Assembly (NCBI GenBank): GCA_019638085.1
Contig: JAHBUL010000001.1
Location: 127,630 to 191,629 of the forward strand
Length of the DNA stretch: 64,000 nt
From: Flavobacteriales bacterium
GTDB lineage: Bacteria > Bacteroidota > Bacteroidia > Flavobacteriales_F > PHOS-HE28
Direction: 5' to 3'
The notes under the pieces: generated by a model
Told to the model about the DNA's origin: nothing
What the model saw: the letters and a program-made list of their open reading frames with translations, nothing else
Database searches by the model: none
Position numbers and translations under genes: made by a program
Shown: positions 6,003 through 25,553 of the stretch, piece by piece
Position numbering within the stretch: position 1 is the first letter of the stretch
How the letters are laid out: each line of letters opens with the position of its first letter

Positions 6003-7904
6003 ATGAGCGACGCGATCAAGCACGAATGCGGTCTGGCTTTTATCCGCTTGCGGAAGCCCTTGGCATATTATCAGGAGCAGCACGGAAGTGCGCTGTACGG
6101 CCTTACCAAGCTGTACCTGCTGATGGAGAAGCAGCACAACCGTGGCCAGGATGGCGCGGGGGTGGCAACCATCAAGCTGGACCCGCCGCCAGGTGCCAAC
6201 TTCATCGATCGTGATCGCAGCACCTCCAAGGATGCCATCCAATTGATCTTTGGCCGCATCTATCAAGGCATCGCTACTGCCATAGCGGAAAACCCCAACG
6301 CGGAACAGGATCCCGAGCTACTGAAACAGGTCGCACCTTACATGGGCGAGCTGCTGCTGGGGCATTTGCGCTATGCCACCTTCGGTCGCGATGAACTGGA
6401 GAACTGCCACCCGCGGCGCCGCCTCAGCAATTGGATCACCCGCAACCTTGTAGTGGCCGGCAACTTCAATATGACCAATGTGGACGAGCTCTTCAACCTG
6501 CTCGTGAGCATCGGCCAAACACCCAAGGAGCGCAGCGATACCATGACCGTGCTGGAGAAGATCGGGCACTTCCTGGACATGGAGAACGAGCGGTTGCGTG
6601 GCATCCATCACCAGCTGGGTTACAACGACCGGCAGATAACCAGAATGATCGAGGAGAAGCTCGATGTGAAGAGCATCCTGCAACAGAGTGCGATCGACTT
6701 CGACGGTGGCTATGCGTTGGCGGGCCTCATCGGCCATGGCGATGCTTTTGTGCTTCGCGATCCCGCCGGTATCCGTCCCTGCTTTTGGTATGCCGATGAC
6801 GAGATCGTGGTGGCTGCGAGTGAACGGCCAGCGATCCAGACCGCATTCCGCCTGAAGGCGGAGCAAGTACACGAATTGGAGCCGGGCAAGGCCTTGATCG
6901 TGAAGAAGGATGGGACGTACAGCACGCAGGAGATCCTGCCCCCATTGGAAAAGCGTTCATGCAGTTTCGAGCGGATCTACTTCAGCCGGGGTAGCGACAC
7001 CGATGTATACCGTGAACGAATTGCGCTAGGGCGATCGGTATGCCCTGCGATCCTGGAGATCATCGACCACGATCTGGAGAACACCGTGTTCTCCTTCATT
7101 CCCAACACTGCGGAAGTGGCATGTTACGGTATGATGAAGGAGATGGAGGATGAACTGGACCGTGTGAAGGAACGGCGCATTCTGGAACTGGGACCCAAGC
7201 CTGATCCAGCGGAGCTACGGGCCATCCTCGCCTTAAGGCCCCGCTTGGAAAAAGTAGCGGTGAAGGACGCTAAACTGCGCACCTTCATCACCAATGAAAA
7301 TTCACGTGCCGACCTCGTGGCACACGTGTATGACATCACCTATGGCACTGTGCGTCCCGGGGTGGACTCGTTGGTGGTGATCGACGACAGCATCGTGCGC
7401 GGCACCACGCTCAAGCAGAGCATCCTGAAGATGCTGGATCGCTTGGAACCACGCAAGATCGTGGTAGTAAGCAGCGCCCCGCAGATCCGCTACCCCGATT
7501 GCTACGGCATCGATATGGCCAAGATGGGCGACCTCGCAGCGTTTCAAGCCGCTATTTCCCTGCTGAAGGAGACCAAGCAAGAGAACATCATCGACGATGT
7601 GTATGACCGTTGCCTCGCCATGGTGGATAGGCCGCTGGCCGAACAGGAGAACGTTGTGAAGGATATTTATCGGCCTTTCTCAGCGGAACAGATCAGCAAG
7701 CGCATCGGTGAACTGTTGACCTCTCCTGAGATCAATGCCGAGGTGGCCATCGTGTATCAAAGCATTGAAGGCTTGCACGCTGCCTGCCCGGGGCACACCG
7801 GTGATTGGTACTTCACCGGCAACTACCCGACACCCGGTGGCAACCGCGTGGTGAACCGCGCCTTCATCAACTGGAGGCAAGGGAAGAACGTGCGGGCGTA
7901 TTGA
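6003..7904 (+). CDS. purF: Amidophosphoribosyltransferase (long Bacteroidota-type PurF)
   Basis: N-terminal MSDAIKHECGLAF glutamine-amidotransferase class-II nucleophile region and a PRTase domain; start at internal Met 6003. Confidence 0.85.
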   Translation: MSDAIKHECGLAFIRLRKPLAYYQEQHGSALYGLTKLYLLMEKQHNRGQDGAGVATIKLDPPPGANFIDRDRSTSKDAIQLIFGRIYQGIATAIAENPNAEQDPELLKQVAPYMGELLLGHLRYATFGRDELENCHPRRRLSNWITRNLVVAGNFNMTNVDELFNLLVSIGQTPKERSDTMTVLEKIGHFLDMENERLRGIHHQLGYNDRQITRMIEEKLDVKSILQQSAIDFDGGYALAGLIGHGDAFVLRDPAGIRPCFWYADDEIVVAASERPAIQTAFRLKAEQVHELEPGKALIVKKDGTYSTQEILPPLEKRSCSFERIYFSRGSDTDVYRERIALGRSVCPAILEIIDHDLENTVFSFIPNTAEVACYGMMKEMEDELDRVKERRILELGPKPDPAELRAILALRPRLEKVAVKDAKLRTFITNENSRADLVAHVYDITYGTVRPGVDSLVVIDDSIVRGTTLKQSILKMLDRLEPRKIVVVSSAPQIRYPDCYGIDMAKMGDLAAFQAAISLLKETKQENIIDDVYDRCLAMVDRPLAEQENVVKDIYRPFSAEQISKRIGELLTSPEINAEVAIVYQSIEGLHAACPGHTGDWYFTGNYPTPGGNRVVNRAFINWRQGKNVRAY

Positions 7905-10351: not shown

Positions 10352-10858
10352 ATGCCTTCACTCCGGCACATTGGCTTTTTACTGTTGCTACTGGCCGGCG
10401 GGGTCAATGCCTCCGCACAGCACGTACAGGAGTCCGCCTACCAAGAAAAGTTGCAGGGCTTGCTTTCGGACAAGACACCCGTGATCGATGTTCCGCAATT
10501 GGCCAAGAACCCGAAGGTGATGCTGCTGGATGCACGGCCCAAGGAGGAATTTGACGTGAGCCATATGGCCAAGGCGCGCCGCGTCGGCTACGACGACTTC
10601 GACATGGCCAAGGTGAAGGACCTGCCCAAGGACACGGCCATCGTGGTGTACTGCTCCGTAGGCTATCGTAGTGGAAAGGTCACCGAGAAACTGTTGAAGG
10701 CCGGCTTCACCAACGTGAGGAACCTCTATGGAGGCATTTTTGAGTGGGTGAACACAGGCCGCACCGTGGTGGATGATTCCGGAAAGCCGACGGATCGTAT
10801 CCACGCCTACGACAAGAACTGGTCGCGCTGGGTGTTGAAGAGAGAGAAGGTCTATTAG
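10352..10858 (+). CDS. Rhodanese-domain sulfurtransferase, secreted
   Basis: Signal peptide plus rhodanese active-site loop CSVGYRSG. Confidence 0.8.
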   Translation: MPSLRHIGFLLLLLAGGVNASAQHVQESAYQEKLQGLLSDKTPVIDVPQLAKNPKVMLLDARPKEEFDVSHMAKARRVGYDDFDMAKVKDLPKDTAIVVYCSVGYRSGKVTEKLLKAGFTNVRNLYGGIFEWVNTGRTVVDDSGKPTDRIHAYDKNWSRWVLKREKVY

Positions 10859-10917: not shown

Positions 10918-11745
10918 ATGCGAAGAGCTGTAAACATCTCGAAGAACTGGAAGCATGTGTTGATCGCATGTTTGATCTCGCCGACGGTGGAGGCGCAGGT
11001 GGATGGCTTCAACAAGGGCGCTGGCAACGTGGACGTGGTCGTATCCTTCAGCTATGAAAAAGGCTTGGGCTATTGCTTGGCGGACGGGAACGTGGCCATA
11101 AAGCGAAATACGATAGCAGCCACCCTCTTTGCAGCTGGCGGTCTAACGGAGGACCTGGATCTGCAATTGAACATCCCGTTCATCTCGAACTCGACCGAAT
11201 CCGATTTCCAGGATGTGCAAGCCTTCCTGAAATGGTTACCGATGAAAACCGCGATGGGTAACGGCAAGCTGGCAATGGGCCCGGCCTTGGGCTATAGCGT
11301 GCCGGTAACGGACTACCAGACGGAAGGCGTGAACGCGATCGGCCAAGAAGCTACGAGCATAATTCCCATGGGCGTAATGCAGTACAGCCGGAATAACGGC
11401 TATTTCACCAGCTTGGTCGGCGGTTACATAGTTGCATCGGAGCCCACTCCGGACGCACTGGTCGGTACCTTACGTTTCGGGCATTTCAATACCGTGCATT
11501 ATTGGGAACTCTATCTACAAGGCCAAAGGGCGGATGGTGGAAAGAATTATCGCGGCACCGGGGACCTTGCACCAACAAGCTTCAAGGAATTGGGGGTTGA
11601 CTTCCTGAAGGTTGGCGGGAAGTACTACAAACCTATTGGTTCACGTATCGGGATAGTGGCAGAGGCGAGCTATGTACTCAGTGGTCGCAACGTGGACCAG
11701 GCCGTAATGGGCGCACTTTCGGTGGTCATTCACTTCCGGGAGTAG
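10918..11745 (+). CDS. Hypothetical outer-membrane beta-barrel-like protein
   Basis: N-terminal signal (ACLISPTVEAQ) and alternating amphipathic beta-strand pattern; start at internal Met 10918. Confidence 0.5.
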   Translation: MRRAVNISKNWKHVLIACLISPTVEAQVDGFNKGAGNVDVVVSFSYEKGLGYCLADGNVAIKRNTIAATLFAAGGLTEDLDLQLNIPFISNSTESDFQDVQAFLKWLPMKTAMGNGKLAMGPALGYSVPVTDYQTEGVNAIGQEATSIIPMGVMQYSRNNGYFTSLVGGYIVASEPTPDALVGTLRFGHFNTVHYWELYLQGQRADGGKNYRGTGDLAPTSFKELGVDFLKVGGKYYKPIGSRIGIVAEASYVLSGRNVDQAVMGALSVVIHFRE

Positions 11746-11789
11746 TCCGGATAGGGATGCACCAAGATGTTTTGAGAACACATTCCGGG

Positions 11790-12254
11790 TTAAACCCCGA
11801 ATTGCTCCAAGTGGTGGTCGATGTGTTTGTAGAACAGATTGCTCCATTCACGAGCGGTAAGTGGGCCGAATGAGGGTGAGTTCTTGCCGTTGAAGTGCGC
11901 GCTGCCCAAGGCTTGTGTCGTGTTCATGTAGGCGATCGTTCGGTCCTTCTCATTCATGAAATCCACTTCATTGCTGACCAGGAAGGCAGGTGCTGTACGG
12001 GAGTTTCGTCGGTACTTCCCTTCGCCCACCACCACTTTTTTCAAGAAGGTGCGCAGTAGTAGCCGTACGAAAGCGTTCGGCGGCGGATGCTTCGTGTCGT
12101 AGTGGGTATCGTACGCCATTTCGTAGATCCGATTGCAGTGGGCCAGCATTTGCGCTGCGTCCATTTTGCCCCACTGGGGCCGGGTCTCAGGCGTTAGCCT
12201 TTCGATGCGTGAGACCACCTCATCGGAAATCGCCTTGTCGAAGATGTTCTTCAT
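11790..12254 (-). CDS. Hypothetical protein (DUF1569-like), divergent from egtB
   Basis: ORF starting MKNIFDKAISDEVVSRIERL; family assignment tentative. Confidence 0.5.
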   Translation of the reverse strand: MKNIFDKAISDEVVSRIERLTPETRPQWGKMDAAQMLAHCNRIYEMAYDTHYDTKHPPPNAFVRLLLRTFLKKVVVGEGKYRRNSRTAPAFLVSNEVDFMNEKDRTIAYMNTTQALGSAHFNGKNSPSFGPLTAREWSNLFYKHIDHHLEQFGV

Positions 12255-12369
12255 GTTGTATAGCTTGCAAGGGCGAACCCACGCACAAAATAGCGTCAGG
12301 AACGTGCTGGAAGAGCGACGATCGAGTCCGGTCGTCGAACAAACCAAGCCCACTACGCGTCATGCAATT

Positions 12370-13644
12370 ATGCAGAACACGATGAAAGATGAACACCCAG
12401 CAGCAGTGGTGAACATCCCCGGATCCGGCGCGTCTGAGGGGATCGCACCGGCACCGGTTGACCCACAACTACGCTTTCAGGCCGTGCGTGATCGCACCGT
12501 TGCTATTTGTGCTCCGCTCAAAGTGGAGGATCATGTCATTCAGCCTGTTACCTATGTCTCACCCCCGAAGTGGCATCTGGCTCACACCACATGGTTCTTC
12601 GAGCAATTCATCCTGAAGGATAGCAAGGAGTATGAGCTGTTCAATGAGGATATGGCCTACATGTTCAACAGCTACTACGAGCATGTGGGGAAGCGCGTGC
12701 TGCGGGGTGATAGAGGGAACATGACCCGTCCAACACTGGAAGAGGTGCATGCCTATCGCCAGCATGTGGATGATGCGATGAACAAATTCCTCGCCGGCGG
12801 AGAGGCAAGCGAAGAGCAACTGCGGATCTTGGAACTCGGCCTCAACCACGAGGAGCAGCACCAGGAACTGCTGGTGACTGATTTGAAATACATCCTCGGG
12901 AACAACCCGCTGTTCCCGGTGTACGACGACTTCACCGAGAGCCGCCCGGAAAAGACCAAGGGTGACTTTATCCAGATCAACGGCGGCCTGTATTCCATCG
13001 GTTCCGAAGGAGAAGGCTTCAGTTTCGACAATGAGCATGCACGGCACCAAGTGTACGTGGATGATTTTGAGATCAGCGACCGCTTGGTGACCAACGGTGA
13101 ATTTCTGGCATTCATGGACGATGGCGGATACGCGGACTTCAACCATTGGCACAGTGATGGCTGGCAGTGGGTGAAGGACAACCAAGTACAAGCGCCGATG
13201 TACTGGCACAAAGTGGATGGCACTTGGCATTATTACACGCTGAAGGGCTTGACCGTGGTGGAGCCTAAGATGCCGCTCTGCCACATCTCCTTTTATGAGG
13301 CGTTTGCCTTTGCGGAATGGAGCGGAAAGCGCCTGCCTACCGAGGCGGAATGGGAAGTGGCGAACACAAGGTTCCAATGGGGCCAGCGCTGGGAATGGAC
13401 GAATAGCGCCTACCTGCCGTATCCGGGGTACAAGCGCGTTCCCGGTGCGCTGGGTGAATACAACGGCAAGTTCATGGTGAACCAAATGGTGTTGCGTGGT
13501 GCTTCAGTGGCCACCGCACCAAACCATTCGCGGGGAACGTATCGCAACTTCTTTCAGCCGGACCTGCGGTGGCAGCACTCGGGGCTGCGGTTGGCGAAGG
13601 ATGGAACTGTAAAAAAGGGATCGGGTGAACAGAAAACCGGATGA
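12370..13644 (+). CDS. egtB: Ergothioneine biosynthesis sulfoxide synthase EgtB (DinB_2 + FGE-sulfatase domains)
   Basis: Iron-binding HX3HXE motif (NHEEQHQE) in the N-terminal DinB-like domain and an FGE-type C-terminal domain (WEWTNSAY...GASVAT); start at internal Met 12370. Confidence 0.85.
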   Translation: MQNTMKDEHPAAVVNIPGSGASEGIAPAPVDPQLRFQAVRDRTVAICAPLKVEDHVIQPVTYVSPPKWHLAHTTWFFEQFILKDSKEYELFNEDMAYMFNSYYEHVGKRVLRGDRGNMTRPTLEEVHAYRQHVDDAMNKFLAGGEASEEQLRILELGLNHEEQHQELLVTDLKYILGNNPLFPVYDDFTESRPEKTKGDFIQINGGLYSIGSEGEGFSFDNEHARHQVYVDDFEISDRLVTNGEFLAFMDDGGYADFNHWHSDGWQWVKDNQVQAPMYWHKVDGTWHYYTLKGLTVVEPKMPLCHISFYEAFAFAEWSGKRLPTEAEWEVANTRFQWGQRWEWTNSAYLPYPGYKRVPGALGEYNGKFMVNQMVLRGASVATAPNHSRGTYRNFFQPDLRWQHSGLRLAKDGTVKKGSGEQKTG

Positions 13645-13651
13645 TCGGAAA

Positions 13652-14641
13652 ATGAAGGACGTGCTCGAAAAGACATCGGCAGCGACGGAAGAGTTCCGGG
13701 CGCATGTGCTTGCTGGACTTGCCAGCACACCGAAGAGGATCAGCTCGCGATATTTCTATGATGCTGAAGGCGACCGGCTCTTTCAGCAGATCATGGCCTC
13801 GGAGGATTATTATGTGACCCGTGCTGAGAATGAGATCTTACGGGATCAAACAGATGCGGTCCTCACGGCCTTGGCCAACGGACATCAACGCTTTTCCCTT
13901 TTCGAACTGGGTGCCGGTGATGGGGCGAAGACCAAGCATTTGTTAAGGCGCGCACTGGAGATGGGGCGCGATCCGCTCTATCGTCCCATTGACATTTCCG
14001 AGAATGCATTGGAACAATTAGGCACGACATTGAAGAAGGAACTTCCCGCACTTCGCTACCACGCGGAACAAGGTGAATATTTCGAGGCGATCGAACGGAG
14101 CTTCACTGATCCGTCCGAGGCGAAGGCCGTACTTTTCCTCGGTTCCAACATAGGAAATCTCGAACATGAGAGGGCCGTTGAATTACTGAAAGGGGTAGCG
14201 CAAAACCTCGGGCCGAACGACCGGTTCCTTGTCGGCTTTGACAGGAAGAAGGATCCCGCGACCATACGGCGTGCCTATAACGATAGCGAAGGCCATACAC
14301 GCGACTTCAACCTGAACTTGCTACGGCGGATAAACAATGAACTCGGTGCAGATCTCGATCTGGACCACTTCATCCACACACCCGTCTATGATCCCTCCAG
14401 CGGCCGCGCACTCAGCTACATCGTGAGCACCCGTGATCAGCAGGTCCATGTCCCTGGCTCGGAGCGGACCTTCCACTTCAAAGCATGGGAAGCACTGCAT
14501 ACGGAGATCAGCCAGAAGTACGATGATGAGATGATCGCCGATCTCGCCAAGCGCTCAGGCCTGAGGATCGCCGATCAATTCACGGACAGCAAAGGCTACT
14601 TCTCCGATGTTGTATTCGCACCTAAAGAGACGATGTCATGA
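13652..14641 (+). CDS. egtD: L-histidine N-alpha-methyltransferase EgtD
   Basis: Histidine-specific SAM methyltransferase signature (YFYDAEGDRLF, LFELGAGDG, FLGSNIGN); starts 8 nt after the egtB stop. Confidence 0.85.
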   Translation: MKDVLEKTSAATEEFRAHVLAGLASTPKRISSRYFYDAEGDRLFQQIMASEDYYVTRAENEILRDQTDAVLTALANGHQRFSLFELGAGDGAKTKHLLRRALEMGRDPLYRPIDISENALEQLGTTLKKELPALRYHAEQGEYFEAIERSFTDPSEAKAVLFLGSNIGNLEHERAVELLKGVAQNLGPNDRFLVGFDRKKDPATIRRAYNDSEGHTRDFNLNLLRRINNELGADLDLDHFIHTPVYDPSSGRALSYIVSTRDQQVHVPGSERTFHFKAWEALHTEISQKYDDEMIADLAKRSGLRIADQFTDSKGYFSDVVFAPKETMS

Positions 14642-14919
14642 AAGCTTTATGGAACGGCAAGACACTTGCCGAAAGCGACGATACGGTGGTGGTGGAAGGC
14701 AACCACTACTTTCCCGAGGACGCGATCAAGAAGGAATACTTCAAGCCGTCCACCACGCACACGCACGACCCATGGCGAGGTGAGGCGAGCTACTATACAT
14801 TGGAGGTGGACGGCAAGCGGAACCCGGATGCCGCCTGGTACTATCCCACGCCGCTGGACACCGTGAAGGAGGTCAAAGGGCGAGTGGCGTTCTGGAAGGG
14901 GGTTACCGTGGAGGGATAA
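14638..14919 (+). CDS. DUF427 domain protein
   Basis: ATGA overlap with the egtD stop; sequence DDTVVVEGNHYFP...ASYYTLEVDG is typical of DUF427. Confidence 0.7.
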   Translation: MKALWNGKTLAESDDTVVVEGNHYFPEDAIKKEYFKPSTTHTHDPWRGEASYYTLEVDGKRNPDAAWYYPTPLDTVKEVKGRVAFWKGVTVEG

Positions 14920-15010
14920 CCGCAGCGCATAGTTATCAGTTGCTCATTCTCAGTTGTCAAGGGTGACTGCGGATGACAACTTCGTGTTCTTTGTGGAAGA
15001 AGCGGACCCG

Positions 15011-16084
15011 TCACTTGCTGGTCAACGCTTTCACCAGTCGCTCCACATCCTCCTCGTCATTGTAGAAGTGGATCCCGATGCGGATGCCCGCGCCACGCAA
15101 CTGAGCCTGCACACCGGCCTCGCGCATTTTCGTCAAATGCTTTTCATCGCCTTCAATGATCAGGATCCCGCCACGCGTTGCCGGGTCCGTGCCGTTCAGC
15201 ACGCGCACACCAGCCTTCTGGAGCTGATCAACCGCAAGGTCACAGAGTTGCAAGAGGCGCTCCCTGACGGCATCGGCTCCAATGGCCAAGGACCGCTCCA
15301 CGGCATCACTCAGGCGCACCAGTGCGATCGGGTCCAAGTGGCCTTCACAAAGTGCTCCGATGGGGTCGAAGCCGTTCTTTTCCGATAGTTCCGTACGCAC
15401 TGTTTCCGAGAGGTGGAAGAAGCCATTTCCAAAACCTGCCAAAGGCCATTTGTATCCGCTGGAACCAACGATGTCAACGGGTGTGCGTCGCAGATCAATG
15501 GGCACGCTGCACCAGGACTGCGTGATATCCACCACGGACCAAGTTCCATGCGCACGGCACAATTCCGTCAATGCGTGCAGATCGATCATGAAGCCCGTCT
15601 GCCATTGCACATGGCTGATCGCCACGAGCTGTGGACGTTCACGTTGGATCGCCGCAGCCAGCACATCCATCGGGATCGTTCCGTCAGCAGCCGGCTCCAC
15701 TGCGACGATATCAAATCCGTTCCACTTGAACGGCGCATGCAGTGTGGGGTAATCCCCACCAACGAGCAGCACTTTCCTCCGGTGCTTCAGCATGGGTGCC
15801 AAGCGTGCCATCCCACCGGTGAAGTTCTGCAGCAAGGCCATTCCAGAAGCATTGCCACCCACATGCCGCGCAACGAGGCCCACGACATCCGCTTTTCCTT
15901 TCCCGTGCCAATGCATGAAGCGGGCGGAACCCTCCATCATCAGGCGCTCCTGCTCCTTGCGCGCCGCTTCTTCCGTGGAGCGTGCGATCAGGCCGCAGGA
16001 GGAGGTGTCCACATATGTGCCGCGTTCCAGACCGGGATAGTCCTTGCGGACCAGATCCCAGTTCGAGGTGTTCCGGTCTTCCAT
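15011..16084 (-). CDS. Class-V PLP-dependent aminotransferase/C-S lyase-like enzyme (candidate EgtE)
   Basis: Aminotransferase class V fold with PLP-lysine motif SSGYKW; convergent with the egtB-egtD-DUF427 unit. Confidence 0.75.
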   Translation of the reverse strand: MEDRNTSNWDLVRKDYPGLERGTYVDTSSCGLIARSTEEAARKEQERLMMEGSARFMHWHGKGKADVVGLVARHVGGNASGMALLQNFTGGMARLAPMLKHRRKVLLVGGDYPTLHAPFKWNGFDIVAVEPAADGTIPMDVLAAAIQRERPQLVAISHVQWQTGFMIDLHALTELCRAHGTWSVVDITQSWCSVPIDLRRTPVDIVGSSGYKWPLAGFGNGFFHLSETVRTELSEKNGFDPIGALCEGHLDPIALVRLSDAVERSLAIGADAVRERLLQLCDLAVDQLQKAGVRVLNGTDPATRGGILIIEGDEKHLTKMREAGVQAQLRGAGIRIGIHFYNDEEDVERLVKALTSK

Positions 16085-16300
16085 GGTGCGAAGGTCGGAA
16101 TGGGAAGACCATTTGCGATGAAAAAGGGCTGACTGAGGTTACATGTCGTTCGGGGGCGACCTTGCTGCGGAGTATGCACCGCGCGCCCTGTACATCCGTG
16201 CTCGGACGATAGTGGCACGACCCAACGTCAGGAATGCCAAACCTGCGGGACTACCTTGTGCGGAGGCGGGGCTTCATCCCGGTTCGAAAACCAAAAGCAC

Positions 16301-17047
16301 ATGACCAAGTCGACCCAGGAAAAGCCCGATTTCACAGGACTCAAGGCAATGTTCGTCAACTGTACACTGAAGCGGTCACCACAAAAAAGTCACACTTCCA
16401 AGCTGATCGAAGTATCCAAAGCGATCATGGAAAAGGAACGGGTTTCGGTGGAGGAGATCCGTTTGGTGGACCACGATGTGGCCAGTGGCATTTATCCGGA
16501 CATGAGGGAACACGGCTGGAAAACCGATGAATGGCCAACGCTTTTCAGGAAGCTTTTTGCGGCGGATATCCTCGTGGTCGGCACGCCGATCTGGTTGGGT
16601 GAAAAATCATCCATTGCGCAAAAGCTGATCGAACGCCTCTACGCCATGAGCGGCAAGACCAACGAGCAAGGCCAGTACCTGTACTATGGCAAGGTGGGTG
16701 GCTGTGTGGTCACGGGCAACGAGGATGGCATAAAGCATTGTGCCATGGGCATCTTGTACTCCCTACAGCATGTGGGGTATTCCATACCGCCGCAAGCGGA
16801 TTGTGGTTGGATCGGTGAAGTCGGACCGGGGCCTAGCTACGGCGACACTGAATGGAAGGGAAAGAAAGCGGACCCTCCCGTCGGCTTCGATTCCGATTTC
16901 ACCAACAGGAATACCACGTTCATGACCTACAATCTGTTGCACTTGGCAGCGATGTTGAAGAAGCAAGGCGGTTATCCCAATTATGGCAACTCCCGCGAGG
17001 CGTGGGATGAGGGTGAGCGTTGGGGTTTCCAACCCCGGAACCGTTGA
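16301..17047 (+). CDS. NADPH-dependent FMN reductase (flavodoxin-like fold)
   Basis: ADILVVGTPIWLGEKSS motif typical of the FMN_red family. Confidence 0.75.
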   Translation: MTKSTQEKPDFTGLKAMFVNCTLKRSPQKSHTSKLIEVSKAIMEKERVSVEEIRLVDHDVASGIYPDMREHGWKTDEWPTLFRKLFAADILVVGTPIWLGEKSSIAQKLIERLYAMSGKTNEQGQYLYYGKVGGCVVTGNEDGIKHCAMGILYSLQHVGYSIPPQADCGWIGEVGPGPSYGDTEWKGKKADPPVGFDSDFTNRNTTFMTYNLLHLAAMLKKQGGYPNYGNSREAWDEGERWGFQPRNR

Positions 17048-17114: not shown

Positions 17115-18335
17115 TCACTCCTTCTTCAACCACGTCACCACTTCCACTGTTTCGTGTAGAGTGCGATGCACCGGGCATCGATCGGCTATCTCCAACAAGC
17201 GCTTTCGCTGGGTATCGTCCAGATCTCCATGCAGTTCCACCATGCGCTCGAAGCGGTCGATCTTTCCGTTAGTGCCTTCCACGCAACTTTCGCAATCCTC
17301 AGCGTGGATCTTACCATGTTTCAGGTGAACGTAGGCTTCTTGCAGGTCCCACTTCTTTCGCTCGGCATACATCTTCATGGTCATTGCGGTGCAGGCACCC
17401 AGCGCAGCGCTCAGTAGATCATAGGGCGTAGGGCCGTAGTTGCTTCCCCCCACGCTTTCGGGCTCATCCGCCGTTAGGTGATGGCCACCGGCGAGGATCT
17501 GTGTGGTGTATTTCTCATTTGCGATGTGTACCACCACGGGCATGTCACTGTGCAGCTCTTCCTGTGGTTGCTCTTGTGTCAAATAGCGCTTCGACCAGGC
17601 GGCGATCATGCTGCCGGCATAATTGGAATCCGTGTTGTTGCTGAGTAAATGATCGGCACCGTCCAAACTGAGAAAGCTCTTCGGATGTCGTGCGGCTGCG
17701 AACAGCACGGCTGCATTGGCGATGCCCACCACGGTGTCCTGCGGGCTGTGGGCAATAAGGATGGGCTTGCGCAGATCGCCGAGGATGCTGGAGAGGTCCC
17801 GCTTCTCAAGGTCGTCCAGAAAGCCCTTCGCAATGGTGAACGCTCTCCCGCCGATGTTCACCTCGGCATGTCCTTCCGTCTTGATCTTTTCCAGATCTCC
17901 GCTGAACAATTTCTTGATGTGCCCCACATCGCCCGGCGCTCCGATAGTTGCCACGGCCTTGATGTTCTCCGCCTCGGAACCCGCCACGATGGCCGCCGCA
18001 CCACCCAGCGAATGCCCGATGAGCAAAGCAGGTTCCATGTGCTCGGTCTTCAGGTAGTCCATGGCAGCGTGAAGGTCGGCCACGTTGCTGCTGAAGTTGG
18101 TCTCACTGAATTCACCATCGCTCTGTCCCAGACCGGTGAAGTCGAAGCGTAGCACGCCAAAACCCGCACCGGTGAGTGCGCGGCTGATGTTGCGCACCGC
18201 ATGGAGGTCCTTGCTGCAGGTGAAGCAATGCGCGAAGAGTGCGAAGTGGATCGGCTTGCGATCCGCAGGCAGGTCGATACGAGCACTGAGCATGGTGCCC
18301 TCGGCATTGGGAAAGGTGATCGGGGTGCTTTTCAT
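17115..18335 (-). CDS. Alpha/beta-hydrolase fused to OsmC/Ohr-family peroxiredoxin-like domain
   Basis: GHSLGG nucleophile-elbow in the N-terminal half; OsmC-like C-terminal half with conserved Cys (GACTAMT). Confidence 0.8.
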   Translation of the reverse strand: MKSTPITFPNAEGTMLSARIDLPADRKPIHFALFAHCFTCSKDLHAVRNISRALTGAGFGVLRFDFTGLGQSDGEFSETNFSSNVADLHAAMDYLKTEHMEPALLIGHSLGGAAAIVAGSEAENIKAVATIGAPGDVGHIKKLFSGDLEKIKTEGHAEVNIGGRAFTIAKGFLDDLEKRDLSSILGDLRKPILIAHSPQDTVVGIANAAVLFAAARHPKSFLSLDGADHLLSNNTDSNYAGSMIAAWSKRYLTQEQPQEELHSDMPVVVHIANEKYTTQILAGGHHLTADEPESVGGSNYGPTPYDLLSAALGACTAMTMKMYAERKKWDLQEAYVHLKHGKIHAEDCESCVEGTNGKIDRFERMVELHGDLDDTQRKRLLEIADRCPVHRTLHETVEVVTWLKKE

Positions 18336-18564: not shown

Positions 18565-19143
18565 ATGCCAATTGCCTACCACACTGTGGAAAAGCGCGAG
18601 TTCAACGAATGGGTGCATGCGCACACCGGCGACCTGCTCCGTTATGCCAAGACGCGCGTGCGGGAGGAGGCTGAGGCCGAGGACCTGGTTCAATCGGCAT
18701 TCGTTGCCGCTTGGGAAGGACGAAAGAAATACGCGCAGCAAAGCAGCCCGCGCACGTGGCTTTTCTCAATTCTGAAGAACAAGATCGCCGACCATTGGCG
18801 CAAGGCCTACCGGGATCCCGTGGTCCATGGCCAGGAGCCGGTGGACGCGGACTTCTTCGGTGACAACGGGCGCTGGGCCCCGGGACATATACCGGCAGAA
18901 TGGGGACTCGGTGGGCCGGACCAAGCGGAACAGATGCATCGCTTCCTCGCCGATTGTCTCCGGCTATTGCCGTCCCATTGGCGGGCAGTGGTTGAAATGA
19001 AGTTCCTGAAAGACAAGGATGCCGAGTTGATCTGTCAGGAGCTTGGGATCAGCGCGACGAACTACTGGCAACAGATACACAGGGCCAAGGTGCGGCTGCG
19101 CGAATGCATCAGCACCAAGATCACGAAAGACAACCACCACTGA
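18565..19143 (+). CDS. ECF-subfamily RNA polymerase sigma factor
   Basis: Sigma-70 regions 2 and 4 (DLVQSAFVAAWE...; ELICQELGIS...WQQIHRAKVRLR). Confidence 0.85.
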   Translation: MPIAYHTVEKREFNEWVHAHTGDLLRYAKTRVREEAEAEDLVQSAFVAAWEGRKKYAQQSSPRTWLFSILKNKIADHWRKAYRDPVVHGQEPVDADFFGDNGRWAPGHIPAEWGLGGPDQAEQMHRFLADCLRLLPSHWRAVVEMKFLKDKDAELICQELGISATNYWQQIHRAKVRLRECISTKITKDNHH

Positions 19144-19144
19144 T

Positions 19145-19402
19145 ATGGGACTTATGCAAACCCTCATGCTCTCCTGCCGCAAGGCTGCCGAGCTTACCGA
19201 GCGGCAGTCCTTTGCGCCGCTACCTGCGGTACAGGGATTCCAGCTTTGGATGCACACCCGGATCTGTGCCGGTTGCCAGGCCTACCAGCGGCAGAGCAAA
19301 CGGATCGACTTGCTCCTCGAACAACGCGGCACGGAGACCGCGCTCCGGCCCACAGGGCCCATGGAGGAGCGCATCATTGCAGCGATCAGCTGCAAGAATT
19401 GA
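19145..19402 (+). CDS. Zinc-binding (ZAS-type) anti-sigma factor
   Basis: Starts 1 nt after the sigma stop; HX3CX2C motif HTRICAGC. Confidence 0.65.
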   Translation: MGLMQTLMLSCRKAAELTERQSFAPLPAVQGFQLWMHTRICAGCQAYQRQSKRIDLLLEQRGTETALRPTGPMEERIIAAISCKN

Positions 19403-19427
19403 AACCACAGAAAAGTATCCGATCACC

Positions 19428-19766
19428 ATGTCAAAGAAGTACTATGACCCTGTAGACCTCGGCAAATTCGGCGACATCGCCGAGTTCCAGAAACCCATGG
19501 CGGATAAATTCTTCGCATGGTACAATGAAGTCTTCAAGGAGGGCGCTCTTACCGCCCGGGAGAAATCCTTGATCGCACTGGCTGTTGCACATGGCGTGCA
19601 ATGCCCGTATTGCATCGATGCATACAGTACCGATGCACTGGAAAAGGGCTGTAGTGAGGCCCAGATGATGGAGGCCGTGCATGTGGCTGCCGCGATCCGT
19701 GGAGGGGCGACATTGGTGCATGGCACGCAAATGATGAATCACGTAAAGGCCCTGACCGGAGCATGA
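19428..19766 (+). CDS. AhpD/carboxymuconolactone-decarboxylase-family peroxidase-like protein (arsenosugar-biosynthesis-associated type)
   Basis: CxxC motif VQCPYCIDAY in an AhpD-like fold; directly precedes the ArsS gene. Confidence 0.75.
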   Translation: MSKKYYDPVDLGKFGDIAEFQKPMADKFFAWYNEVFKEGALTAREKSLIALAVAHGVQCPYCIDAYSTDALEKGCSEAQMMEAVHVAAAIRGGATLVHGTQMMNHVKALTGA

Positions 19767-20803
19767 AGAGCCTGTTGGCACAACAGGCCCTATTGAGCGC
19801 AGCCTCCGAGCAGCGGCGTGTGCTGGAGGACCCGGGTTCGGCGCTGCCTTTTTTTGCCAAAAAACTGGCCGAGAGCGGATTGCCCGAGTTGCGTGCCACC
19901 GAGCTGGAAGTGCTGCAGCTCAACCTCGGCCGCATGTGCAACCAAACCTGTGTACACTGCCATGTGGATGCCGGGCCGGATCGCAAGGAGCGCATGAGCC
20001 GCGAGGTGATGGAGGATTGCCTGCGCTCCTTGGATGCGCACCCCGTGCGTACCGTGGACCTTACTGGAGGCGCCCCTGAGATGCACCCTGATTTCCGCTG
20101 GTTCGTGGAGCGATTGAGCGAAACGGGATGCCACATCATCGTGCGATGCAACCTCACCATCATCCTGGCCAACAAGAAGTACCACGACCTGCCTGAATTC
20201 TACCGGAAGCACCGCGTGGAAGTAGTGAGCTCGCTCCCGTTCTATACTGCCGACCGCACCGATCGCCAACGCGGGAAGGGCGTGTTCGAGCATTCCATCG
20301 AAGCCCTGAAGATGCTGAACGCCGTGGGCTATGGCATGCCCGATAGCGATCTGGAATTGAACTTGGTCTACAATCCGGCCGGCGCATTCTTGCCGGGATC
20401 ACAGGACGAACTGGAGAAGCAGTTCAAGAGAAGTTTGATGGCGGACCATGGGATCCAGTTCCACAAGCTGTTCGCCATCACCAACCTGCCGATCAGCCGA
20501 TTTCTGGAATACCTCGTGCGCACCGAACATTACGTGGGATACATGGAGCGCTTGGTCAACGCCTTCAATCCCGCTGCGGTGGCCGGTGTGATGTGCCGCA
20601 ACATGGTCTCCGTATCGCACGATGGGAGCATCTACGATTGTGACTTCAACCAGATGCTGGACCTGCCGTTGAGCGCTGGAATGCCACGCCACATCCGCGA
20701 CCTGGCCGATGCGAACGTGGCGGGCAGGCTGATCGTGACCGGCAGACATTGTTACGGATGCACCGCCGGCGCGGGCAGTAGTTGTGGCGGCTCCGTGGCA
20801 TGA
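19763..20803 (+). CDS. arsS: ArsS-family radical SAM protein with Cys-rich C-terminal domain
   Basis: Radical SAM CNQTCVHCH cluster motif and C-terminal CYGCTAGAGSSCGGS tail; ATGA overlap with the upstream gene. Confidence 0.8.
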   Translation: MKSLLAQQALLSAASEQRRVLEDPGSALPFFAKKLAESGLPELRATELEVLQLNLGRMCNQTCVHCHVDAGPDRKERMSREVMEDCLRSLDAHPVRTVDLTGGAPEMHPDFRWFVERLSETGCHIIVRCNLTIILANKKYHDLPEFYRKHRVEVVSSLPFYTADRTDRQRGKGVFEHSIEALKMLNAVGYGMPDSDLELNLVYNPAGAFLPGSQDELEKQFKRSLMADHGIQFHKLFAITNLPISRFLEYLVRTEHYVGYMERLVNAFNPAAVAGVMCRNMVSVSHDGSIYDCDFNQMLDLPLSAGMPRHIRDLADANVAGRLIVTGRHCYGCTAGAGSSCGGSVA

Positions 20804-21408
20804 GTACCAGGCCATTGCTTCTTGTATTTCTGCGCGCTCCCGTGCTGGGGAAAGTAAAAACGCGCTTGGCCGCCACCATGGGGAAGGAAAGGGCGCTGGA
20901 GATCTACAAGCGATTACTTCAGCACACCATTGAACAAGGCGCGGCCTTGGACGTGGACCGTCAGGCGTGGTACGCTGATGAAATTGCCGACCCGGAACCT
21001 TGTGCCGAACTGGGCTACTCGGTGTATGTGCAAGCAGGCAGGGACCTCGGCGATCGTATGAAATGCGCGTTCGGATCAGGTTTCTCCGCCGGTCACGGTC
21101 CCATCATCATTATCGGTACGGACCTCCCCCAGCTGAGCGCCGCTCTGCTTCGCGAAGCCTATATGGCGCTGGAAACCCATGATGCGGTGATCGGTCCCGC
21201 CAACGACGGTGGCTACTACCTATTGGGCTTACGAGAGCCATGTGAGGAGGTCTTCAGCGGGAAGGCTTGGAGTTCGGACAGTGTATATGCACAGACCATT
21301 GAAGACCTGCGTCAGCTAGGTCGCACCTACCATACGCTTCCGACATTGATCGACATTGACACGGCGGAGGACCTCAAAAGCGTTGAAATTCCGGGAGTGG
21401 CTCGCTGA
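20800..21408 (+). CDS. TIGR04282-like (DUF2064) nucleotidyl/glycosyl-transferase-like protein associated with ArsS clusters
   Basis: N-terminus STRPLLLVFLRAPVLGKVKTRL typical of DUF2064; ATGA overlap with arsS. Confidence 0.7.
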   Translation: MSTRPLLLVFLRAPVLGKVKTRLAATMGKERALEIYKRLLQHTIEQGAALDVDRQAWYADEIADPEPCAELGYSVYVQAGRDLGDRMKCAFGSGFSAGHGPIIIIGTDLPQLSAALLREAYMALETHDAVIGPANDGGYYLLGLREPCEEVFSGKAWSSDSVYAQTIEDLRQLGRTYHTLPTLIDIDTAEDLKSVEIPGVAR

Positions 21409-21613: not shown

Positions 21614-22354
21614 ATGCTACAGATCAAGGACCTCCATGCCCGCATTGAAGGCAAGGATATTTTGAAAGGCCTCAACCTGGAGGTGAACGCAGGTGAGGTA
21701 CACGCCATTATGGGACCCAACGGAAGTGGCAAAAGCACCTTGGCCAACGTATTGGCCGGGCGCGCCGAATACGAGGTGACCGGGGGAAGCGTGAAGTACT
21801 TTGGAGAGGACCTGCTGGAACTGGCCCCGGAAGAGCGGGCGTGGAAGGGCATCTTTCTCGCCTTCCAATATCCGGTGGAGATCCCCGGGGTAAGCAACAT
21901 GAATTTCCTGCGTACTGCATTGAACGAAGGGAAGAAGGCCCGGGGTGAGGCTGAGCTCAGCGGTAAGGACTTCCTCGCTTTGGTCCGCGAACGCGCCAAG
22001 CTGGTGGAGATGGATCCCGCCCTGATGAACCGCAACCTGAACGTGGGGTTCAGCGGGGGTGAAAAAAAGCGCAACGAGATCTTCCAAATGGCCATGCTGG
22101 AGCCCAGACTGGGCATCCTCGATGAGACAGATAGCGGATTGGACATCGACGCATTGCGCGTGGTTGCAAGCGGAGTGAATACCCTGCGCGCCAAGGACAA
22201 CGCCTTTATCGTGGTGACCCACTACCAGCGCTTGCTGGATCATATCATTCCGGATGTGGTCCACGTGATGGCTGATGGCAAGATCATTCGCAGTGGTCCC
22301 AAGGAGTTGGCCTTGGAGTTGGAGGAAAAAGGATACGATTGGGTGAAAGCGTGA
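21614..22354 (+). CDS. sufC: Fe-S cluster assembly ATPase SufC
   Basis: Walker A GPNGSGKST and ABC signature FSGGEKKR, SufC-like throughout. Confidence 0.9.
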   Translation: MLQIKDLHARIEGKDILKGLNLEVNAGEVHAIMGPNGSGKSTLANVLAGRAEYEVTGGSVKYFGEDLLELAPEERAWKGIFLAFQYPVEIPGVSNMNFLRTALNEGKKARGEAELSGKDFLALVRERAKLVEMDPALMNRNLNVGFSGGEKKRNEIFQMAMLEPRLGILDETDSGLDIDALRVVASGVNTLRAKDNAFIVVTHYQRLLDHIIPDVVHVMADGKIIRSGPKELALELEEKGYDWVKA

Positions 22355-22460
22355 TCGCCGATCAGCCGATGAAATACCGATGCCGCTACACAAGTTGCAC
22401 GGAACTCGTGGAACGCATCGTTACCGTCGAGGCAAGGACTCGACCCCTATAAGCATTGAG

Positions 22461-23786
22461 ATGAGCACCGATCAGATAATGGAACTTAATAAGGACGGGA
22501 GATCTCCCGACACGTTGGATATATCAGGCCCCAAGGCCAGTGTGATGGCGCTGTTGCAAGATGGCACCTGGCCCTTGGCTGCAGAAGCTTTTGCTCGGGT
22601 ACAGGAGTTGCCCATCCCCGACAGGCGGACCGAAATGTGGAAGTACACACGGGTCGCCAAGCTCTTCACCGAAACCTATGGCAAGCCCTTGGGCAATGTG
22701 ATCGTGGAACTTCCGCCGCGCATGCCTTTTCCGACCACCCGCGTGGTCTTCGTGAACGGGCATTTCCGCCCCGACCTCAGTGATGACCGGAAGACGGATA
22801 AAGGCGTTGTGATCGACAGCATCTCGCATCACCTGAGCCATGGGCCGCTAAAAGCACTTTACGGACAGATCGCACCCATTGGTGACCGATTGTTCACGGC
22901 GATGAACATGGCTTCGCCCACGGATGGCCTGTTCATCCTGGCCACCAAGGGCTCGAAGACCAGCAAGCCCATCCATGTGCTGCGCATTACCACGCCCATG
23001 AGCGATGGCCAAGCCATGTTGATCCAACCGCGGGACCTTTTCATGCTGAAGGAAGGTGCTGAGGTGGAGGTGATCGATGAGCATATCTCGATCGGGAACA
23101 CCACGTCCTCGCTGGTGAACGGCGTGCGTGAAAGTGTTGTGGGTGAGGGCGCAAACCTCACGCTGCACCTGTTGCAGAATGAACCCGATGGTCCGGCCGA
23201 TATCGGACTGGACAGCGTGAAGATCGCGGCCAAAGGGAATTTCAGCGTCGATACCACGACGCTCTACGGTTCGCTGGTGCGTAACGAATTGAACGTGGCA
23301 CTCGATGGTGCCGAGGCGCATGCCGAACTCAACGGCGTGTACCTGCTCAACGGTACAGCGCACTGCGACAACCACAGTTACATCGGGCACAACGTGCCGG
23401 ATTGCACCAGCGACGAGCTGTACAAGGGCGTAATTGCCGACAAGGCCACGGGCGTATTCAATGGCAAGGTGTACGTGAAGCAGGATGCCCAACGCACCCG
23501 TGCCTATCAACGGAACGCGAATATCCTTCAGGGTGAACATGCCCGCGTGTATTCCAAGCCCGAACTGGAGATCTACGCGGATGACGTGAAGTGCAGCCAC
23601 GGATGTACGATCGGCCGCATGGATGAAGAGGCCATCTTCTACCTCCGCTCACGTGGTGTAAGTGAGGAAGAGGCGCGCCGCATGATGTCGCATGCGTTCA
23701 TGGTGGATGTGCTGGAGCGCGTTACGAATCCGGATTGGAGAAAACACTTGGGCGATATGATCGATGCAAAGTTGGAAGAGCTATGA
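22461..23786 (+). CDS. sufD: Fe-S cluster assembly protein SufD
   Basis: SufBD-family C-terminal region; positioned between sufC and sufS. Confidence 0.85.
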   Translation: MSTDQIMELNKDGRSPDTLDISGPKASVMALLQDGTWPLAAEAFARVQELPIPDRRTEMWKYTRVAKLFTETYGKPLGNVIVELPPRMPFPTTRVVFVNGHFRPDLSDDRKTDKGVVIDSISHHLSHGPLKALYGQIAPIGDRLFTAMNMASPTDGLFILATKGSKTSKPIHVLRITTPMSDGQAMLIQPRDLFMLKEGAEVEVIDEHISIGNTTSSLVNGVRESVVGEGANLTLHLLQNEPDGPADIGLDSVKIAAKGNFSVDTTTLYGSLVRNELNVALDGAEAHAELNGVYLLNGTAHCDNHSYIGHNVPDCTSDELYKGVIADKATGVFNGKVYVKQDAQRTRAYQRNANILQGEHARVYSKPELEIYADDVKCSHGCTIGRMDEEAIFYLRSRGVSEEEARRMMSHAFMVDVLERVTNPDWRKHLGDMIDAKLEEL

Positions 23787-23877
23787 AGAGGAGAACCGCC
23801 AAGACGCAAAACACGCCAAGAATTCACGCCATCCGGTGCATTTCACGTTGCGCTTAGCGTCTTTGCGGTAAAAAACA

Positions 23878-25134: not shown

Positions 25135-25553
25135 ACACCTCATTGAAAGAAGCCCAACAGGAGATCGTGGACGAGTTCGCCATGCTCGGCGATTGGCAGG
25201 ACCGCTATGAGCACCTGATCGAGCTGGGGAAGGAACTGCCATTGATCGCACCCGAACTCAAGACGGATGAGAACCTTGTGCGCGGATGCCAGAGCCGGGT
25301 ATGGCTCACCGCTGAAGATCGGGGAGAAGCCATCCATTTCACTGCGGACAGTGATGCGATGATCACCAAAGGCTTAGTAGCGCTGCTGGTACGTGTGCTG
25401 AACGACCGCACGCCCGAGGAGATCATGGGCACTCCGCTCACCTTCATCGATGCCATTGGTCTGCGCGAACACCTTTCACCCAACCGCAGCAACGGCCTCG
25501 TGGCCATGCTGGACCAGATGAAGCGGTATGCGTTGGTTTATTCCTCGAAATGA
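25131..25553 (+). CDS. sufE: Cysteine desulfuration protein SufE
   Basis: SufE family with conserved Cys in RGCQSRVWL; overlaps the sufS stop. Confidence 0.85.
   Translation: MNTSLKEAQQEIVDEFAMLGDWQDRYEHLIELGKELPLIAPELKTDENLVRGCQSRVWLTAEDRGEAIHFTADSDAMITKGLVALLVRVLNDRTPEEIMGTPLTFIDAIGLREHLSPNRSNGLVAMLDQMKRYALVYSSK

Follow-up and report, generated by a model that had tools for sequence, protein, structure and literature searches.

A predicted cysteine-dependent ergothioneine locus of a Flavobacteriales bacterium, with a convergent candidate C-S lyase gene and an aberrant copy of DUF427

Many bacteria make or import ergothioneine, an antioxidant. The locus described here, egtB-egtD-DUF427 facing a gene for a class-V pyridoxal 5′-phosphate (PLP) enzyme, lies in a 64,000-nucleotide stretch of contig JAHBUL010000001.1 (assembly GCA_019638085.1), hereafter called the window. 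The sequence stems from a metagenome-assembled genome (MAG) of Flavobacteriales; GCA_049647565.1 and about 19 metagenome contigs have the identical locus. The first gene, egtB (12370-13644, plus strand), encodes a protein of 424 residues with the Pfam domains DinB_2 (37.7 bits) and FGE-sulfatase (109 bits). It is followed by egtD (13652-14641, plus strand, 329 residues), the predicted gene of an S-adenosylmethionine-dependent L-histidine N-alpha-methyltransferase. The egtB stop codon ends at 13644 and the egtD ATG begins at 13652, so that the spacer is 7 nt, and not 8 nt as given in a preliminary description of the locus. The DUF427 gene (14638-14919, plus strand, 93 residues; PF04248, 110 bits) is coupled to egtD, the TGA of the latter and the ATG of the former overlapping as ATGA at 14638-14641; this coupling, noted earlier, can be read directly from the sequence. 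After a spacer of 91 nt between the two stop codons (14920-15010) comes the convergent PLP gene (15011-16084, minus strand), whose product of 357 residues matches Aminotran_5 with 66 bits and carries the previously recognized motif SSGYKW at residues 208-213. Scores of the window genes against hidden Markov models are far above chance level. A scan of 11700-16400 for sigma-70 promoters and terminators gave nothing above shuffled sequences, and nothing in the convergent spacer, with a consensus that excludes Bacteroidota promoters.

The two core genes agree with what had been claimed for them. EgtB scores 525.2 bits with TIGR03440, the NCBIfam EgtB equivalog model (cutoff 360), shows the DinB_2 plus FGE-sulfatase architecture, and has its HX3HXE motif as HEEQHQE at residues 160-166. 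EgtD matches Methyltransf_33 (PF10017) with 320.6 bits at a cutoff of 23. Its TIGR03438 score of 276 bits is slightly below the cutoff of 290.9, as is that of an EanA-type protein from a Mariniphaga locus discussed below (286 bits). The alignment with M. smegmatis EgtD (4uy6) covers the full length (6e-45), and the segments FYDAxGxxLF, GSNIGN and TEISQK are kept. In the M. smegmatis enzyme the Asn of GSxIGN, the Glu and Ser of TExSxK and the N-terminal aromatic residues are, as we assume, those that bind histidine. No substitution occurs at near-invariant family columns in EgtB (0 of 101) or EgtD (0 of 47), and by this measure the core seems functional; none occurs at 21 such columns of the PLP enzyme either. 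Judged by sequence, the assignment of the egtB-egtD core is routine and can be made with confidence.

The closest solved relative of EgtB is Chloracidobacterium thermophilum EgtB (6o6l/6qki; 1.5e-129, 436 bits), which we take to be the reference type II EgtB with free cysteine as substrate; the type I enzyme 4x8b follows with 5.5e-31 and 111 bits. The segments KWH, NSYY and HEEQHQE align with the Chloracidobacterium protein, where they presumably provide the metal-binding His residues and the N-terminal Tyr-Tyr pair. Neither egtA-like (GCS2-type) nor egtC-like genes are present within about 10 kb of the locus, in agreement with the preliminary description. A 633-residue GATase-like protein encoded at 6003-7904 was considered as EgtC and rejected as purF-like. 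By its sequence relatives, EgtB is a type II, cysteine-dependent hercynine sulfoxide synthase. As assigned by homology, EgtD would trimethylate histidine to hercynine, and EgtB would join hercynine with free L-cysteine to hercynylcysteine sulfoxide in the short, O2-dependent pathway. We infer that the uncultured source organism produces ergothioneine. The two-gene EgtB/EgtD clusters of type II, as in Chloracidobacterium thermophilum, cyanobacteria and Methylobacterium, have the same domain architecture and the same co-oriented egtB-egtD pair, and the window likewise has no egtA or egtC. The window adds to this pair a DUF427 gene that is translationally coupled to egtD and, in convergent orientation, a conserved class-V PLP gene; the literature search found neither described for such clusters.

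The PLP enzyme was compared with its relatives in two alignments, one of 19 members including homologues beside egt genes and one of 39 members from database homologues. The family is coherent, with lengths of 355-365 residues. In both alignments, D186, T188, Q189, S209, Y211, K212, W213, G217, G219, R330, R335, H339 and N342 are invariant and Y112 is nearly so; no Cys is invariant among the 19 or the 39 members. The window has a suf operon of its own (21614-25553; sufC, sufD, sufS at 23878-25134, sufE), so that a genuine SufS with the Cys loop is encoded besides the Cys-loop-less PLP enzyme. Relative to this SufS, about 20 residues with the catalytic Cys loop of desulfurases are deleted in the PLP enzyme. 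Its Y112 is aligned with the first His of the SufS segment EHHAN, which we assume to be the PLP-stacking residue, as in E. coli SufS. In the mycobacterial enzyme MsEgtE, Tyr106 stacks on PLP and takes part in catalysis, and the active-site set consists of the PLP-binding Lys203 together with Asp180, Gln183, Tyr106 and Arg348 (PMC10805701). The presumed counterparts K212, D186, Q189 and R335 are invariant in the PLP family, and MsEgtE Arg202 corresponds to Tyr211, the correspondence being drawn through the window's own SufS as a bridge and not by direct alignment.

Against solved structures, the family profile gave 8e-33 for SufS-type enzymes, 2e-27 for the C-DES lyase that lacks the Cys loop, and about 1e-14 for EgtE and Egt2 (Egt2 5uts, 5.8e-14). 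The predicted structure of the PLP enzyme (mean predicted local distance difference test score, pLDDT, 94.5) has a query-normalized template modelling (TM) score of 0.85-0.86 to both SufS and MsEgtE; MsEgtE gives the best target-normalized TM score (0.81-0.82) and the highest identity (21%). Two identities were tried and rejected. A cysteine desulfurase of the SufS/IscS/NifS type is contradicted by the absence of an invariant Cys, by the deleted Cys loop and by a best desulfurase score (SufS) of 54.5 bits at a cutoff of 475. Membership in the EgtE or Egt2 families is not supported either: the EgtE model TIGR04343 gives 45.2 bits for the window protein at a cutoff of 400 and matches 13 of the 19 family members, all weakly (best E 3e-22), and Egt2 is non-orthologous. 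In terms of sequence, the PLP enzyme is a member of an undescribed class-V subfamily with an S-x-YKW lysine motif and no desulfurase Cys loop. Its modelled shape and its residues are those expected of a C-S beta-lyase, and it is the most likely candidate for the hercynylcysteine sulfoxide lyase. The products of this step would be pyruvate, ammonia and ergothioneine sulfenic acid, the last of which cellular reductants would turn into ergothioneine.

If so, the subfamily would function like EgtE and Egt2 without belonging to either. With mycobacterial EgtE (TIGR04343; 8irk/8iry), it shares the class-V PLP fold (at the TM scores given above) and apparently the PLP Lys, the Asp, the Gln and the C-terminal Arg, as well as a Tyr at the position that matches the PLP-stacking His of SufS (Tyr106 in MsEgtE) and the lack of the persulfide Cys loop. 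It differs by an identity of only about 21% and by the lysine motif, which is S-x-Y-K here and S-x-R-K in EgtE. In contrast to the mycobacterial EgtA-E pathway, the window has no gamma-glutamylcysteine branch (EgtA, EgtC), and its PLP gene is convergent and not operonic. The fungal Egt1/Egt2 route likewise takes its sulfur from cysteine and ends with a class-V PLP lyase; however, EgtD and EgtB are separate proteins in the window, while Egt1 is fused, and the PLP enzyme, with 357 residues as compared to about 500 in Egt2, is not an orthologue of the latter.

Genomic linkage was assessed by scanning genomes at the species level for the DUF427 protein of the window, which yielded 80 loci (loci from other genomes and metagenomes are given L numbers and PLP homologues P numbers below). 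At 18 of these, a member of the PLP family, 25-31% identical to the window enzyme, stands convergent just downstream of egtB-egtD-DUF427. They belong mostly to Flavobacteriaceae (Flagellimonas, Zobellia, Maribacter, Eudoraea, Aquimarina, Luteirhabdus), along with Luteibaculum and two MAGs, and are flanked by thyA, folA and murI. The window itself is flanked by DUF1569 and rhodanese genes on one side and by FMN (flavin mononucleotide) reductase, OsmC fusion and suf genes on the other. The same module facing a PLP gene is found in L023, with a PLP identity of 50% and the suf/GATase backbone of the window, and in L184, with a PLP identity of 35% and flanking Vut_1 and MOSC genes. Hence, there are at least three flanking contexts for the convergent module (suf/GATase, thyA/folA, Vut_1/MOSC), with PLP identities down to 24-35%. 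Two metagenome loci (L106, L110) have egtB-egtD facing the PLP gene with DUF427 absent, and 13 further PLP homologues apparently share a contig with an EgtD match, as deduced by comparing the matches listed. In a neighbour-joining tree of the family, egt-linked members occupy all deep branches and unlinked ones are nested among them, a topology that fits ancestral coupling of the PLP gene to egt genes followed by repeated uncoupling. We read the coupling with egtB-egtD as real: functional, but not exclusive.

Two other arrangements of PLP genes were seen on the way. At L180 (4501-8031), a PLP family member of 61% identity is convergent to the gene of an EgtD-like methyltransferase (PF10017, 308 bits), which is itself preceded by that of a Cys/Met-metabolism PLP enzyme; neither EgtB nor DUF427 is encoded there, and a different betaine or thiol pathway may be concerned. 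In Reichenbachiella agariperforans (L081, 8001-9463), a DUF427 gene is convergent with that of a 390-residue class-V PLP protein (23% identical), with no egtB or egtD within 8 kb.

Several observations speak against a dedicated role of the PLP enzyme in the pathway. Homologues with 54-66% identity (P0025, P0050, P0059, P0085) stand in unrelated contexts, as do P0100 and P0106, which are more distant; P0050 is encoded on a complete chromosome of 3.9 Mb for which no EgtD appears among the matches listed at 49% identity or more. L179 keeps the backbone sufC, PLP gene, purF-like gene and CHU_C with the whole egt block missing. The PLP family was met at only three EgtD-centred metagenome loci, two of which are among the 38 with at least 1.5 kb of downstream sequence. 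The PLP enzyme scores as well on SufS-type models as on that of EgtE, far under the EgtE cutoff, and its gene, being convergent to egtB-egtD, is not co-transcribed with them. Since relatives without adjacent egt genes exist, the C-S lyase role is plausible but unproven, and since such relatives persist, the enzyme probably acts on other substrates too.

These points can be drawn together into the possibility, to our mind real though on the unlikely side, that the PLP gene is unrelated to ergothioneine. It would encode a class-V lyase with a housekeeping function, be a fixed part of the backbone from the suf operon to the purF-like gene, and have the egt block beside it by chance, the C-S bond being cleaved by unspecific PLP lyases encoded elsewhere in the genome. 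Fission yeast without Egt2 reportedly still produces some ergothioneine. Such a reading would account for the PLP gene standing beside the same backbone genes in L179 and L021 with no egt genes, for an unlinked clade at 54-57% identity, for the convergent orientation, and for the fact that most EgtD loci have no adjacent lyase gene. It does not explain why the PLP gene faces the egt genes in the same way in no fewer than three unrelated flanking contexts, although the PLP protein has diverged to 24-35% identity, nor why egt-linked members stand on all deep branches of the tree, and the features of the family are lyase-like and not desulfurase-like. The product of the locus could also be another thiohistidine or selenohistidine (selenoneine, or an ovothiol-like compound), as EgtB matches the SenA model NF041186 with 357.6 bits and several neighbouring families carry selenoprotein-related names (ArsS, OsmC-related, rhodanese-related). 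We consider this very improbable: the SenA score is under its cutoff of 420 whereas the EgtB score is well over its own, the solved SenA gives 125 bits with the window EgtB as query as compared to 436 bits for Chloracidobacterium EgtB, senB-like and senC-like genes are absent near the locus, and the OvoA model yields 120 bits at a cutoff of 400. A SenA or OvoA identity of EgtB was rejected, as both scores are under their cutoffs. That the PLP enzyme is the physiological C-S lyase of ergothioneine synthesis, and thus a reasonable analogue of EgtE, is a tentative proposal with a little less than an even chance of being right. As an EgtE candidate, the role given to it in the preliminary description, it has gained a conserved convergent position beside egtB-egtD in several backbones; it has lost any claim to the EgtE or Egt2 family, and homologues without adjacent egt genes count against it.

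DUF427 shows an association with ergothioneine genes that extends far beyond this locus. The 93-residue protein is unusually well conserved, with an identity of 62-71% across Bacteroidota, Planctomycetota, Deinococcota, Acidobacteriota and other phyla. Within 8 kb of DUF427, egtD is found at 30 and egtB at 28 of the 80 loci, mostly in the order egtB-egtD-DUF427, and an ergothioneine-related gene of some kind at 34, across many phyla; the co-occurrence of DUF427 with egtD, proposed earlier as a check, is supported in this sample. No neighbours other than egtD and egtB recur beyond genus level in the 80 loci. In Mucilaginibacter, the order is DUF427, a pyridine-nucleotide disulfide oxidoreductase, an ATP-binding cassette (ABC) ATPase, a permease-binding domain fusion, egtB and egtD, and the best solved relative of the binding domain is the ergothioneine transporter EgtUC (9egi, 7e-58). 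At L060, L092, L096 and L102, DUF427 is followed directly by the ATPase and EgtU-like genes, with no egtB or egtD in range. The transporters next to DUF427 are termed EgtU-like only, as they score little better with EgtU than with OpuB/C-type proteins and the Gemmata type has its best match in ProX; neither residues that would tell EgtU from binding proteins of the OpuC type nor an NCBIfam EgtU/EgtV model proved usable for a finer distinction.

Other routes are represented as well. The Mariniphaga locus (L058, 1858-6704) contains DUF427, a sulfurtransferase gene matching 6ktv/6h98 (1.5e-209), an EgtD-type gene and an EgtU-like gene; 6ktv/6h98 is, as we take it, EanB of Chlorobium limicola, the anaerobic ergothioneine synthase. 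On a metagenome contig (L135, 380-2849), genes for EanB, EanA and DUF427 stand in this order. In other genomes, genes of the EanA/EanB route and of EgtU-like importers are found directly beside canonical DUF427 genes; neither is present in the window. Plasmids provide further cases. Islands on Comamonas testosteroni pNFYY023-1 (L186) and P. aeruginosa pAFM-PA19-3158 (L189) contain DUF427 with egtB and egtD in the order msrA, SelO, msrB, hydrolase/OsmC, DUF427, "mercuric reductase", sulfite-oxidase-like, FAD (flavin adenine dinucleotide) oxidoreductase, egtB, egtD, MOSC; no description of a plasmid island egtB-egtD-msrB-OsmC was found in the literature search. DUF427 and egtD lie a few kb apart, for most with egtB, on plasmids of Achromobacter, Aquincola, a Comamonadaceae strain and other Comamonas, and a Sinorhizobium plasmid has msrB, msrA, TlpA, egtB, DUF2171, DUF427, AraC and egtD. 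In a gammaproteobacterial MAG (L059, 8001-11397), a PhzF-like gene (PF02567, 68 bits) was seen between DUF427 and egtB-egtD.

The association has its limits. DUF427 occurs at only 11 of 52 informative EgtD-centred metagenome loci, EgtD is also encoded on only about 15 of 230 DUF427-bearing plasmids, a more distant DUF427 follows glutaredoxin 3 with no egt genes in Tn3 cargo of enterobacterial, Acinetobacter and Pseudomonas plasmids, and the sample of 80 loci is biased to relatives of an egt-linked query. Even so, the association at the level of the family is quite probably functional, and it appears to be the most novel outcome of the analysis. The literature search found no mention of DUF427 together with ergothioneine, and the paper on the discovery of EgtU is silent on DUF427. 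A lead to a DUF427-glutamine riboswitch was rejected as a prefix match to DUF4278. An example of the Tn3-associated cargo is the plasmid of Klebsiella pneumoniae MGH 39 (L193, 2863-5279), with genes for a sulfite-oxidase-like protein, ferredoxin reductase, glutaredoxin 3 and DUF427 and no egt genes in the region; a DUF427 gene whose product matches the query with identical statistics (42.4% identity) is listed on plasmids of E. coli, Klebsiella, Aeromonas, Acinetobacter and Pseudomonas.

The DUF427 copy of the window itself deviates from its family. It reads D44-P-W-R47-G in place of the invariant Cys44-Pro-Trp-Lys47-Gly (C44D, K47R), each of the two replacements needing two base changes. Cys44 and Lys47 are present at all 80 genome loci, in all DUF427 copies of the metagenome loci, in L023, L184 and 3djm, and in the nearest homologues retrieved from the database, 19 in number and up to 84% identical, so that their loss is unique to the window protein among the sequences compared. 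Together with A76V, the protein has three substitutions at 27 near-invariant columns, as compared to a mean of 0.12 in the others. As the exact protein is encoded on about 19 contigs from several samples, a sequencing error is not the cause. In the two related loci L106 and L110, the DUF427 gene is lost. The pattern suggests that, in this lineage, DUF427 is under weaker constraint or has taken on another function, with egtB, egtD and the PLP gene intact. The DUF427 copy of the window is probably degenerate and inactive, a decaying or repurposed remnant.

What DUF427 may do where it is intact can be approached from its contexts. The family has a single invariant Cys, in T-x-C-P-W-K-G, and many invariant aromatic residues, and its genes repeatedly stand directly before that of a flavoprotein disulfide reductase of class I, in some cases so close that the stop codon overlaps the next start codon. 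By Pfam match and fold it belongs to the beta-tent proteins, as does MsrB. It has no sequence similarity to MsrB, and the family, although MsrB-like in fold, is reported to be without a zinc site (PMC4287342). Because DUF427 is found beside EanA/EanB and at importer-only loci, it is unlikely to act on intermediates of the EgtB pathway; the common denominator of its contexts, as read from gene neighbourhoods, seems to be ergothioneine itself or its oxidized forms. The family would be tied to ergothioneine whether made aerobically, made anaerobically or (probably) imported, with a further tie to flavoprotein disulfide reductases; its most likely role is that of a Cys-based partner in the redox chemistry or recycling of ergothioneine, and not that of a biosynthetic helper. 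Like the small proteins in the redox pairs mycoredoxin/mycothione reductase and glutaredoxin/glutathione reductase, DUF427 is small, has an invariant Cys and stands beside a disulfide oxidoreductase, but it does not have the thioredoxin fold, and the parallel is an analogy.

The disulfide oxidoreductases deserve a separate remark. An operon of such a gene (PRK06370/RclA/MerA-like), a ProV-type ATPase, an EgtU-like fusion, egtB and egtD was seen at eight metagenome loci (L113, L116, L125, L128, L131, L141, L149, L156); the same order occurs in two Mucilaginibacter genomes (L104, 8255-14480; L070) with DUF427 just upstream, and at L139 and L171 the oxidoreductase gene directly precedes egtB with no transporter. 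Its recurrence beside egtB and the transporter makes it a candidate ergothioneine-linked reductase. The flavoproteins differ at the redox-active pair, which is CVNDGC in Mucilaginibacter (L104, 8255-9667), whereas the Comamonas plasmid protein (L186, 6279-7688) has CVNRGY and only one Cys there.

Two other functions for DUF427 were weighed. The preliminary description had hinted at an accessory role in biosynthesis, coupled to egtD, and a chaperone for the sulfoxide or a reductase for the sulfenic acid could be imagined on the basis of the MsrB-like beta-tent fold and of the gene arrangement: L023 has the ATGA coupling to egtD as well, and egtD and DUF427 overlap or abut in L184 and in most Flavobacteriaceae loci. 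This has become quite improbable. The EanA/EanB route is not known to involve a sulfoxide, and DUF427 genes stand beside EanB-EanA as well as at importer-only loci. They lie upstream of the disulfide reductase gene, and not beside egtD, in Mucilaginibacter and on proteobacterial plasmids, and DUF427 is dispensable or decayed in the clade of the window, whose own copy lacks the Cys and the Lys while egtB, egtD and the PLP gene are intact. Alternatively, DUF427 could be a general thiol-redox or stress protein that adjoins egt genes only as a passenger of shared oxidative-stress islands. The egt-free Tn3 cargo (sulfite-oxidase-like, ferredoxin reductase, grxC, DUF427) of Klebsiella, E. coli, Acinetobacter and Pseudomonas would fit, as would the lpdA-like, peroxiredoxin-like and glutaredoxin genes near DUF427 in plasmid contexts of Deinococcus and Mycolicibacterium and the 46 of 80 loci with no egt link. 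We hold this unlikely, since no genes but egtD and egtB recur broadly beside DUF427 in the 80 loci and since the adjacency of DUF427 to EgtD, EanA or EgtV-like ATPase genes is immediate and often overlapping, in several phyla and in varied gene orders.

The preferred explanation of the locus as a whole, which we regard as moderately probable, combines a cysteine- and O2-dependent ergothioneine pathway, a PLP lyase, and DUF427 as an ergothioneine-linked redox partner that has decayed in the window. A more specific proposal can be formulated. The 93-residue DUF427 with the CPWKG motif may be the ergothioneine-specific redox protein that is still missing in bacteria, a single-Cys beta-tent "redoxin" or S-oxide reductase that, with the adjacent class-I flavoprotein disulfide reductase, regenerates ergothioneine from its disulfide or S-oxidized forms, or uses ergothioneine for the repair of targets, in producers and probable importers, and jointly with this the convergent class-V enzyme would represent a third family of ergothioneine C-S lyases, recruited independently of EgtE and Egt2. 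Taken in its entirety, this proposal is speculative and rather unlikely to hold in all its parts.

Two points in bacterial ergothioneine metabolism are ill-defined so far: the enzyme for C-S cleavage in the widespread EgtB/EgtD clusters of the cysteine-dependent kind that have no EgtE, and the proteins that use or recycle ergothioneine inside bacterial cells. For the former, the class-V PLP subfamily is nominated as a candidate. For the latter, the candidates are DUF427 and the proteins often found with it, namely the flavoprotein disulfide reductase, the hydrolase-OsmC fusion and the FMN reductase. A crystal structure of DUF427 exists and no function is known, so that the ligand hypothesis is immediately testable. 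The presence of the DUF427-egt module beside msrA and msrB on clinical Pseudomonas and Achromobacter plasmids hints at transferable protection against oxidative stress.

Some genes around the locus may belong to the same module. An FMN reductase of the NADPH-dependent family is encoded at 16301-17047 (plus strand; PF03358, 38.7 bits), and its homologues stand directly upstream of egtB in Maribacter halichondriae (L045) and at the metagenome loci L107, L150 and L172. An alpha/beta-hydrolase-OsmC fusion (17115-18335, minus strand; Hydrolase_4 and OsmC) is 44% identical (E 1e-115) to the fusion directly before DUF427 in the plasmid islands of Comamonas and P. aeruginosa and is kept also in L023 and L105. 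This recurrence at egt loci makes the two plausible, and probably actual, members of one oxidative-stress module. Further downstream are an extracytoplasmic function (ECF) sigma factor gene (18565-19143, plus strand; Sigma70_r2/r4_2) and that of a ZAS-type anti-sigma factor of 85 residues with the motif HTRICAGC (19145-19402, plus strand). The block 18565-21408, with the ECF sigma factor, the ZAS anti-sigma factor, CMD, ArsS and TIGR04282, is replaced by two small open reading frames in the strain variants L004, L005, L012, L013 and L015, and is therefore not an obligatory part of the locus. Of the thiol-redox neighbourhood proposed earlier, the FMN reductase and the hydrolase-OsmC fusion thus remain, and the ECF/ZAS unit drops out.

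On the other side, divergent from egtB, a DinB-like DUF1569 gene (11790-12254, minus strand, 154 residues; PF07606, 34 bits) was not found at related egt loci, and upstream of the egt locus, at 10352-10858, there is a gene matching NF045521, "rhodanese near glycosyltransferase". The segment 19404-21408, downstream of the egt locus, contains the genes for CMD, ArsS (TIGR04167, 448 bits) and the TIGR04282 glycosyltransferase. On the Burkholderia plasmids L190 and L194, DUF427 stands beside a block of DUF547, radical SAM and ArsS genes, which may be a coincidence or a second recurrent association.

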